A stretch of 64,000 nt of DNA from positions 1 through 64,000 of IMG/VR virus record IMGVR_UViG_2698537050_000003. The stretch is one strand, 5' to 3'. Under the pieces are notes generated by a model. It saw only the letters and a list, made by a program, of their open reading frames with translations, did no database searches and was not told where the DNA came from. The DNA is from a virus (taxonomy: Duplodnaviria > Caudoviricetes). Below, piece after piece: positions 858 through 2,377 of the stretch; the stretch's first letter is position 1, and each line of letters begins with the position of its first letter. The position numbers were made by a program, and so were the translations under genes.

Positions 858-1553
858 ATGCAGCTGCTCAACGAAAAGGCCCAAAAACCCGAGGAAAACA
901 GCCCATTCGGGAAGTCCGAAATAGCCAGGCTATGGCCTGCCGATCAGGTCGAGCGCCGCCCGATCAGCGAGCTGATCCCGAGCGCCCGCAACGCGCGCCT
1001 GCATTCCGACGAGCAGATCGAGCAGCTGGTGGCCTCGATCAGCGAGTGGGGCTGGACCATGCCGGTGCTGGTCGATGAAGCCGGGTCGATCATAGCTGGC
1101 CACGGGCGAGTGCTGGCTGCGGCGCAGTTAGGCATCGATCAGGTGCCGACAATGGTCGCTCGCGGCTGGTCGGAGGCGCAAAAGCGCGCCTATCTGATCG
1201 CCGACAACAAGCTGACCGAGAACGGCAGCTGGGATCAGGCGCTGCTGCGCATCGAATTGAACGAGCTGGCGACCATGGGCCTCGATGGCCTGACCGGCTT
1301 CAGCGAGATCGAGCTGCGCGAGATGGGAATCGGCGTCGAGGGCCTCGGCGGCATGCCGGTGCTGGCCGATGGCGAGCGCTCGCCCTTTCAGCAGATGACC
1401 TTCATCCTGCACGCATCGCAGGCCGAGATCGTCAGCGCGGCCATCGAGCGTGCAGCGCAGGCGTTGGGGCCGCCGACCGAGGCTTCGGAGAACCAGAACC
1501 AGAACGGCAATGCGCTGGCGGAAATTTGCCGCAGCTACCTGGGCGCGCGATGA
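858..1553 (+). CDS. ParB/Srx N-terminal domain phage protein
   Basis: NARLHSDEQIEQLVASISEWGWTMPVLVD...IIAGHGR...YLIADNKL ParB-N motifs; no methyltransferase domain fused. Confidence 0.85.
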   Translation: MQLLNEKAQKPEENSPFGKSEIARLWPADQVERRPISELIPSARNARLHSDEQIEQLVASISEWGWTMPVLVDEAGSIIAGHGRVLAAAQLGIDQVPTMVARGWSEAQKRAYLIADNKLTENGSWDQALLRIELNELATMGLDGLTGFSEIELREMGIGVEGLGGMPVLADGERSPFQQMTFILHASQAEIVSAAIERAAQALGPPTEASENQNQNGNALAEICRSYLGAR

Positions 1554-2377
1554 CGAGTGCGAAAGAGATCGAGGTCCGCCCCATCGCCAAGCGCGATGCG
1601 GACGCGCTGATCAGGCGCGTGCATTACAGCGGCAAGGTGGTGCGCAACTCGAAGCTATCGCTCGGCGTCTTCCTGCACGGCATGCTGGAGGGCGCGATGC
1701 AATTCGGCCCTTCGCTGCAGAAGTCGAACATCGTGCATCTGATCCGCGATACCGGCTGGAACGGATTCCTCGAATTGAACCGGCTGGCCTTCACCGATGC
1801 GCTGCCGCGCAATTCGGAAAGCCGCGCGCTCGGCATCGCGCTGCGCATGATCAGGAAGCACTACCAGCATATCGAATGGATCGTCAGCTTCGCCGACGCC
1901 TGCCAATGCGGCGACGGCACGATCTATCGCGCGGCTGGCTTCGTGCTCACCGCGATCAAGGTGAACAAGGACCTGCACATCGCCGAGGACGGCAGCGTCG
2001 TTCACAAGATGTCGCAGATCACCGGGGCCAACCGGCTGCAGCATTTCGCCAAGACAGGCGGCAGATGGCGCGGCACCGGCCAGACGCTCGAAGGCTACAC
2101 GCTGCGCTATATCTATTTCCTGAATCCGGCAGCGCGGGCGCGGCTGGTCGGCGAGGCGCTGCCCTTCAGCGCCATCGAGGCGCGCGGCGCGACGATGTAT
2201 CGCGGCGTGCGTGGGAAGCAGGCGATGGCTGGCACCAACCAGCACAGCGACGGAGCAGCACCGATCCCCACGCTCCAGCGAAACGAGAGGACAGAAGATG
2301 AAACCCGGAAAGCGTCCGTTGCCGACGCATCTGAAATTGCTGCGCGGCAATCCAGGCCAGCGGCAGCTGCACGATGA
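1550..2377 (+). CDS. mom: Mu Mom-like adenine modification enzyme (GNAT fold)
   Basis: HYS..V.NS.L.LGVF, ELNR, PRNSESRA, EW..SFAD, G.IY.A..F and RYI.FLN blocks match Mu Mom as recalled; ATGA-coupled to ParB gene. Confidence 0.85.
   Translation: MTSAKEIEVRPIAKRDADALIRRVHYSGKVVRNSKLSLGVFLHGMLEGAMQFGPSLQKSNIVHLIRDTGWNGFLELNRLAFTDALPRNSESRALGIALRMIRKHYQHIEWIVSFADACQCGDGTIYRAAGFVLTAIKVNKDLHIAEDGSVVHKMSQITGANRLQHFAKTGGRWRGTGQTLEGYTLRYIYFLNPAARARLVGEALPFSAIEARGATMYRGVRGKQAMAGTNQHSDGAAPIPTLQRNERTEDETRKASVADASEIAARQSRPAAAAR
2209..2277 (+). ncRNA. Putative tRNA-Gly-like RNA embedded in 3' end of mom homologue
   Basis: Acceptor stem GCGTGGG(2209-15)/CCCACGC(2267-73), T discriminator, CCA 2275-77; stem GCTGG/CCAGC with CACCAA loop; 5-nt variable region; T-arm-like GACGG-7nt-CCG(A)TC; D arm reduced. 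Confidence 0.6.

Follow-up and report, generated by a model that had tools for sequence, protein, structure and literature searches.

A tRNA-Gly-Like RNA at the 3′ End of Phage mom Genes, a Candidate Private Glycine Carrier for Mom

Why should a gene for a DNA-modifying enzyme carry, within its own reading frame, something that folds like a glycine tRNA? The question is raised by a 64,000-nucleotide (nt) stretch of viral DNA (Duplodnaviria; Caudoviricetes; positions 1 to 64,000 of IMG/VR record IMGVR_UViG_2698537050_000003), here called the window at its full length, in which a 69-nt element at 2209–2277 on the plus strand lies inside the 3′ end of a mom open reading frame (ORF). A sequence-only reading of this DNA had proposed that the element is a chargeable RNA that feeds Mom or regulates it. 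Comparison across sequences shows that 2209–2277 is the gene for a structured RNA, one of a widespread family with its origin in tRNA-Gly, and that this family travels with a ParB-like and Mom cassette in phages and prophages of many phyla. As to its role, the features that the family has kept and lost make it, in our judgment, fairly probable that the RNA is a private, non-decoding glycine carrier for Mom.

The Element Is Laid Out as a tRNA-Gly without a D Arm

The element, on the plus strand throughout, opens with the 5′ strand of an acceptor stem (GCGTGGG, 2209–2215) that pairs with CCCACGC at 2267–2273, after which come the discriminator T2274 and an encoded CCA (2275–2277). The place of the D arm is taken by a 12-nt connector, AAGCAGGCGATG (2216–2227). 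It is followed by an anticodon-like hairpin (2228–2243) with a 5-bp stem (2228–2232/2239–2243) and a 6-nt loop CACCAA (2233–2238) holding the triplet ACC at 2234–2236, by a variable stretch of 5 nt (2244–2248), and by a T-like arm (2249–2266) in which GACGG (2249–2253) pairs with CCG(A)TC (2261–2266), A2264 being bulged, around a 7-nt loop AGCAGCA without TTC. The consensus also pairs G2222-C2223 of the connector with G2247-C2248 of the variable stretch, and this 2-bp helix is present in 21/21 sequences of the alignment described below, with both sides changed in 2 of them. The cloverleaf features listed by the sequence-only reading (stems, loops, U73, and CCA) were all recovered, and the element begins where that reading had seen Mom similarity end, its start lying 3 nt past the TMYRG codons. 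Measured against a canonical tRNA, the 7-bp acceptor stem, the discriminator base, and the CCA are present, and the D arm, the TTC T loop, and a 7-nt loop with U33 are absent.

Taken by itself, the window sequence gives no support for an RNA at this site. The fold of 2209–2277 has a minimum free energy (MFE) of −26.2 kcal/mol (z −1.72) and is equalled in stability by 12 of 200 shuffles, which is no excess over chance, and the fold of 2150–2330 has z −0.05, although its MFE structure keeps the cloverleaf. The relaxed tRNA search that had been suggested came back empty, ARAGORN calling no tRNA at the element at relaxed settings (-ps80) or in its mitochondrial modes and none in the window in standard mode; the three other calls made with -mt -ps90 are spurious. 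An Rfam search of 1400–2700 likewise gives no tRNA match at E ≤ 10. The case for an RNA is wholly one of cross-sequence comparison.

Compensatory Changes Preserve Three Helices

We assembled 80 Mom loci (L001–L080) from genome records of many phyla. With window positions 2195–2300 as the query, blastn finds a block ending in CGCTCCA in 37/80 of these loci, and many of the alignments begin exactly at 2209. The 21 distinct D-armless copies found by blastn were aligned with MAFFT, which is not structure-aware (alignment A3). A MAFFT alignment of all 35 blast-found elements (A2) was dropped because the 5′ ends of the longer class were misplaced in it; the 14 longer sequences with D arms stand outside the A3 counts.

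The A3 alignment has 96.6% of its cells paired and changes on both sides in 13 of 17 pairs. Its covariation score is 0.524, compared with 0.137 in shuffles (0/500 shuffles score as high), and controls with slid partners have 35–46% of cells paired. All three helices contribute: the acceptor stem is 99.3% paired, with pairs 1–3 (G-C, C-G, G-C) invariant in 21/21 sequences and compensatory changes in each of pairs 4–7; the anticodon-like stem has compensatory changes in 5/5 pairs; and the T-like stem is 100% paired, with compensatory changes in 4/5 pairs. RNAalifold independently predicts the same three helices together with the 2-bp connector/variable helix.

Two further alignments extend this picture to viral elements. 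A MAFFT alignment of 41 collected with a motif from the 3′ half of the element (A6), for which the acceptor 5′ strand lay outside the search motif, again has an acceptor stem 99.3% paired; only 58% of its helix 2 cells are paired, because MAFFT shifts the register there. A model-fitted alignment of 77 distinct viral elements (A5), which by its making leans towards structure, is 96.7% paired overall and 92.5% in helix 2. The end CGCTCCA is invariant in A3 and A6. Furthermore, G-U and U-G cells number 11 vs. 2 A-C and C-A cells in A3, and 38 vs. 11 in A5, an excess that points to the mom-sense strand as the RNA.

The mom Reading Frame Runs Over the RNA

The Mom domain occupies amino acids 7–206 of the window ORF (Pfam profile), and conservation at the protein level extends to about amino acid 225. 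Codons 220–275 span the RNA element and then 80 nt of terS, the gene for the small terminase subunit, up to the mom stop at 2375–2377, so that the element sits inside the last 56 mom codons and 20 nt upstream of the terS ATG at 2298.

An alignment of 25 Mom homologues contains two types of C-terminal tail, “...SDGAAPIPTLQ” and “...QRRSSTDPHAP,” which turn out to be the same nucleotides (about 2244–2278 in the window) in two reading frames; the conservation therefore lies in the nucleic acid and not in the protein. Third codon positions tell of the same stretch: between the window and L002 they are identical at 154/215 sites in the mom core and at 23/23 in the element, and between the window and L001 at 164/215 and 22/23, respectively. 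The position of the mom stop varies over the 68 loci in which mom and the element share a strand: 26 have it ahead of the element, 11 within the element, and 31 beyond the element. In L017, mom stops directly behind the codons for ...MYKGVKK, with 7 nt left before the element begins. Structure prediction assigns residues 217–275 of the window protein a predicted local distance difference test score (pLDDT) of <50, a tail predicted to be disordered. The proposal that the last mom codons are read-through over an RNA and into terS is thus supported by the two-frame tails, the scattered stops, and the low pLDDT.

In two database proteins, P0011 and P0014, a Mom tail is continued by terS sequence, as ...LKMKPGKRPLPTHLKLLRGNP in P0011 and as PF25680 together with PF05119 in P0014. 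Frame slips or errors of gene calling across the element are the probable cause of both fusions.

The RNA Family Travels with ParB-Like and Mom Genes

A covariance model built from A3 (R1; match cut-off E ≤ 0.011) scores the window element at 85.1 bits, a match that holds by construction because the window sequence is in the seed; members outside the seed reach 89.3 bits (L034) and 87.2 bits (L105). Matches to R1 are found in the window and in 69/80 Mom loci, always at or just past the mom 3′ end, and on the mom strand except in L067 and L073. Together with the three covarying helices, this answers in the positive the expectation that a covarying GCG...CGC-U-CCA structure would stand beside other mom homologues. 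Among the 11 remaining loci, L071 and L080 miss the cut-off at E 0.1, ARAGORN reports odd tRNAs with 2- or 4-base “anticodons” in five (L069, L071, L074, L075, and L080), and a stem scan finds candidate elements in L065 and L077; the three without an R1 match that end near mom are short contigs of 744 to 1444 nt (L028, L033, and L060), and L078 gave no candidate.

The linkage holds in the reverse direction. A 29-nt motif holding no information on mom and drawn from the 3′ half of the element was run against viral contigs and picked out at least 120 stretches, 80 of which were made into viral loci. A Mom-profile match accompanies the motif in 72 of these 80 loci, on the same strand every time, and in 6 of the 8 loci without Mom the sequence is cut within 225 nt upstream of the element, leaving L133 and L148 as true exceptions. 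All 80 motif-found loci match R1, two of them (L110 and L137) with two tandem copies, and 8 viral loci have the reverse order, with the element immediately ahead of a mom that is more divergent. The 11.7-Mb genome in which the window lies as a prophage has a single Mom and a single strong R1 match (the next has E 0.59), and in a sample of 151 genomes from its family the only 2 with R1 matches are also the only 2 with PF25680, the two matches abutting in the second. A phylum-wide sample, also of 151 genomes, has R1 matches in G000 and G273 and PF25680 in 8 genomes (G000 and 7 others).

The gene on the other side of mom is also conserved. A ParB-like homologue lies upstream on the same strand in 75/80 Mom loci (phmmer), mostly abutting the mom start, compared with a terS of the window type after the element in 4/80 only; the conserved unit is therefore ParB-like gene, mom, and RNA, with the terminase outside it. 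A cultured phage, Psychrobacter phage vB_PmaS_Y8A (L204, OQ059336.1), has the same ParB-Mom-terS order, and tandem elements at 2162–2229 and 2234–2302 (61.7 and 60.1 bits) fill its unannotated 165-nt gap between mom and terS.

Some Bacillota loci are arranged differently. Nine of them (including L037, L045, L046, L054, L059, L064, L068, and L079) have the element 650–900 nt past the mom stop; in L045 an ORF of no Pfam family (3828–4310) stands between mom and the element, and a ParB_N and N6_N4 DNA methylase fusion (4433–5794) begins within the 3′ part of the element. A G+C-rich hairpin with a T run ends 2–4 nt 5′ of the element in eight Bacillota loci (L037, L049, L052, L058, L059, L061, L070, and L072), and in L061 it includes the mom stop. 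This hairpin looks like a terminator, which would be a poor fit with simple co-transcription.

Glycine Identity Features Are Kept While Decoding Features Are Lost

We counted kept and lost features over the 72 real R1 matches from the window and the Mom loci. The GCG start is found in 71/72 and the discriminator T in 71/72, and 60/72 end in CGCTCCA. Within the D-armless class of 29 members, 22 have a 7-nt middle loop, and loop positions 3–5 read NCC in 22/22 of these (ACC being commonest, then TCC and CCC), with T at the U33 position in 3/22 only; the other middle loops have 5 nt (3 members), 6 nt (3, the window among them), or 8 nt (1). Most members have NGCRRYA as the T loop, GGTTCRAnnCC persists in some relatives, and the Bacillota and Micavibrio forms retain a D arm. 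The family therefore grades from a near-normal tRNA-Gly to the reduced form of the window. Among 20 loci tested, the Rfam tRNA threshold is reached only by L074 (two copies), by L075, and by a separate true tRNA-Gly in L051; ARAGORN calls a tRNA-Gly in L032 and L050 and gives 2- or 4-base “anticodons” in 8 relatives.

The tRNA-Gly genes of the host are normal and have GCG...CGC-T-CCA in common with the element, but G4-C69 where the window has U4-A69. The host genome has glyS, which encodes the beta subunit of an alpha2beta2 glycyl-tRNA synthetase (GlyRS). The window element contains G1-C72, C2-G71, G3-C70, U73, and an NCC loop triplet, and G3-C70 is a bacterial GlyRS determinant. The sequence-only reading had named all of these as GlyRS identity elements: Nagato et al. 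(PMC10464925) give G1C72, C2G71, C35, C36, and U73 as bacterial determinants, which bears out every one of them except G3-C70.

Gene Order around the Element

The window has a late-gene block on the plus strand that consists of a ParB_N-domain gene, mom, terS, terL, and an HNH gene. The ParB_N-domain gene (858–1553; Pfam ParB_N E 2.7e-06), the first gene of the conserved cassette, overlaps the mom start with its stop in an ATGA at 1550–1553. The mom ORF (1550–2377; 275 codons) matches Pfam Mom PF25680 with 172.1 bits (E 1.6e-50; curated cut-off 27.1). After the RNA gene, GAGAGGA at 2285–2291, 8 nt past the CCA, reads as the likely ribosome-binding site of terS (2298–2789; Pfam Terminase_4 E 1.2e-21), which is followed by terL, for the large terminase subunit (2674–4356; Pfam TerL_ATPase and TerL_nuclease). 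The HNH endonuclease gene (4438–4746; Pfam E 1.7e-06) stands directly after terL, an arrangement as in HK97-like cos phages.

The alignment of the window protein to the Mom of Protein Data Bank entry 8bv8 has E 6e-25, and six of the seven residues that Mu Mom needs for activity according to Silva et al. (R111, S124, D149, R151, Y159, H58, and Y59; PMC13219725) align to identical residues. The seventh, R151, aligns to Q119 with a one-residue gap alongside, and Q119 is invariant in the 25-sequence clade alignment.

Discussion

Cloverleaves that are reduced or imitated and yet open to aminoacylation occur as D-armless mitochondrial tRNAs and as viral tRNA-like structures, the latter at the ends of RNA genomes. 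The window element differs from both in origin and setting, and the mitochondrial mode of ARAGORN gives no call on it. With canonical bacterial tRNA-Gly, the host genes among them, it has in common a 7-bp acceptor stem beginning G-C, C-G, G-C, the U73, the encoded CCA, and the NCC triplet. It departs from them in lacking the D arm and the TTC loop, in its bulged T stem and 6-nt middle loop, and in having U4-A69 for G4-C69.

Both halves of the idea of a private carrier, that is, dedicated non-decoding tRNAs for a transferase and the use of Gly-tRNAGly by Mom, are already known. Mu Mom moves glycine from Gly-tRNAGly onto adenine N6 in double-stranded DNA (Silva et al., Nat Commun 2026, PMC13219725); this bears out, for Mu Mom, the donor that the sequence-only reading had named. 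The same study states that Gly-tRNAAla is not used and that recognition is probably at the acceptor end. Mu Mom and the window Mom belong to one enzyme family, PF25680, and the Mu donor is a glycine tRNA; the difference is that Mu has no R1 match, whereas the window mom comes with a tRNA-Gly-like RNA of its own and has a ParB-like gene as partner. The staphylococcal non-ribosomal tRNA-Gly for Fem enzymes, the other precedent that had been invoked, is likewise on record (Rietmeyer et al., PMC7826273): non-proteogenic tRNAGly molecules are preferred by FmhB and escape elongation factor Tu (EF-Tu). We use it as a working analogy only. In both cases, glycine tRNAs would be reserved for a tRNA-dependent transferase (FmhB, FemA, and FemB in staphylococci), and the staphylococcal ones combine poor EF-Tu and ribosome binding with transferase preference; they are host chromosomal, confined to the staphylococcal lineage, and feed cell-wall synthesis (PMC7826273), whereas the window RNA is phage-borne and D-armless, sits within the coding frame of a protein, and would serve to modify DNA. 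Literature searches turned up no description of a Mom-linked tRNA-like RNA, supplements apart; the term “tRNA-like” has 0 occurrences in the main text of PMC13219725, and term searches of its 2023 preprint brought up no such description.

A glycine carrier of this kind might work as follows. The RNA would be cut from a late parB-mom-terS transcript by RNase P at its 5′ end and by tRNA 3′-end enzymes at the other, and the host alpha2beta2 GlyRS would glycylate it via the retained determinants. EF-Tu and the ribosome would handle it poorly, and it could thus supply Mom with private activated glycine for the conversion of adenine to N6-carbamoylmethyladenine in DNA; with such a private pool, Mom would not need to compete with translation in late infection. 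In the window, where the mom frame contains the RNA, a mom message would be cut with every excision, which may tie the level of the enzyme to that of its carrier.

Several observations weigh against a private carrier, besides the chance-level fold of the window sequence. On the side of the enzyme, Mu Mom uses all three Escherichia coli tRNAGly isoacceptors and needs no private tRNA, two metagenomic Mom homologues are called active in E. coli, and the conclusion drawn by Silva et al. is that the phage scavenges host tRNA (PMC13219725). On the side of charging, the alpha2beta2 GlyRS of L. plantarum has very low activity on D-arm-deleted tRNAGly, and it favours substrates in which position 4 is a purine and position 69 a pyrimidine (PMC10464925); the window element has no D arm and has U4-A69, a pyrimidine stands at position 4 in 59/74 viral elements, and the CCA is not encoded in 12/72 R1 matches. 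Excision in the window would, moreover, cut the mom message within its frame. The linkage has exceptions in both directions. Three strong Mom genes in the phylum sample (G238, G239, and G282) have no element even with filters off, and R1 finds nothing in the complete records of Mu, JD024, pAEv1818, PX29, and Enterococcus phage Q69; the RNA is therefore the mark of a single large clade of Mom and not of the whole family. Conversely, L133, L148, and G273 have an element without a PF25680 Mom.

Each of these three exceptions has a setting of its own. L133 has (9843–10541, minus strand) ParB_N, then the element, then the large terminase, with no mom, and the element of L148 (9142–9213, minus strand) lies inside an ORF of no family ahead of the terminase. 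Around the G273 element (locus L210, G273:C27, 2562–2628), a strong copy at 66 bits, no PF25680 Mom is found for 2.5 kb; ∼480 nt downstream of it, at 3106–4413, a Dam-like domain is fused to a phage GNAT-like one (PF22555 and PF22559). Upstream are a D12 methyltransferase gene and a DUF1643 gene.

What else could the RNA be? Best placed among the alternatives, though in our estimate unlikely, is a cis-acting processing or stability element, in which the tRNA-like fold would be solely a signal for RNase P and 3′-end processing that separates the mom and terS messages, or sets the level of Mom through cleavage of the mom message, without any aminoacylation. The position of the RNA within the mom frame and 20 nt ahead of terS would suit such an element, as would the mom stop lying inside or after it in 42/68 loci and the RNA heading late or terminase genes in the window, phage Y8A, L133, and L148. 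A processing signal needs acceptor and T helices only, however, and leaves unexplained the NCC in 22/22 loops, the U73, and the G1-C72 and C2-G71 pairs across phyla; nor does it sit well with an RNA that is upstream of mom in 8 viral loci and 650–900 nt from mom in 9 Bacillota loci, or with a window-type terS in 4/80 loci only.

Next in order, and also improbable, is a regulatory mimic or decoy that would donate no glycine; it would act by binding, as inhibitor, sensor, or sponge, to Mom, to GlyRS, or to a host defence enzyme that targets tRNA. The bulged A of the T stem, the NGCRRYA loop, and the connector are conserved although GlyRS should not need them, which hints at a dedicated protein partner, and a D-armless form may be a poor GlyRS substrate (PMC10464925). 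Against a decoy stand the glycine determinants, present as a full set, and the encoded CCA, all of them requirements of a substrate, and the tight linkage to a transferase that uses Gly-tRNAGly; no pointer to a defence enzyme was seen.

That the element is an ordinary phage-borne tRNA-Gly, supplementing translation by decoding, we hold to be very improbable. Its near-normal relatives do lend themselves to this idea, with L032 and L050 called tRNA-Gly by ARAGORN and L074 (twice) and L075 passing the Rfam tRNA threshold, but the window element, which has no D arm or TTC loop and a 6-nt middle loop, is rejected by ARAGORN and Rfam alike, and across the family T stands at U33 in 3/22 loops, loops range from 5 to 8 nt, and 8 relatives have 2- or 4-base “anticodons.”

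Cos sites of HK97-like phages lie directly upstream of terS. A DNA-level site (cos, pac, terminase-binding, or attachment) that resembles a tRNA by chance would fit the position of the element directly upstream of terS and the HNH gene at 4438–4746, yet it is scarcely credible given compensatory changes that keep three helices, wobble on one strand only (11 G-U vs. 2 A-C cells), and linkage to mom and not to terS. On covariation, strand asymmetry, and linkage (terS 4/80 vs. ParB-like 75/80) we reject a cos or pac site. We also reject a remnant of an attachment site in a host tRNA-Gly gene: no part of the element is missing, and its similarity to the 3′ half of the host genes is confined to the last 7 nt (CGCTCCA).

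Returning to the private glycine carrier, a wider version of it can be put forward only tentatively, since we see it as falling somewhat short of an even chance: a portable kit of ParB-like gene, Mom, and private non-decoding carrier may move among phages of unrelated phyla, with the carrier pared down to what GlyRS and Mom need and, here, placed in frame such that its release would destroy a mom message and balance enzyme against donor. If that is true, the related element of G273, beside its fusion of Dam-like and phage-GNAT domains, would extend DNA acylation fed by tRNA past the Mom family.

Genome annotation overlooks these RNAs, and mom clones may carry them unnoticed. If the RNA is the glycine carrier of Mom, the conserved “C-terminal tails” and the unannotated gaps at mom genes, including that of phage vB_PmaS_Y8A, would be explained, and the minimal tRNA accepted by a bacterial GlyRS and a GNAT transferase would be revealed. 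The compact pair of enzyme and carrier could serve in tools for site-specific DNA modification. Such an RNA would be the second natural tRNA retired from translation for the sake of one transferase, after the staphylococcal cell-wall tRNAs; neither DNA modification nor viruses would have had such a case before.

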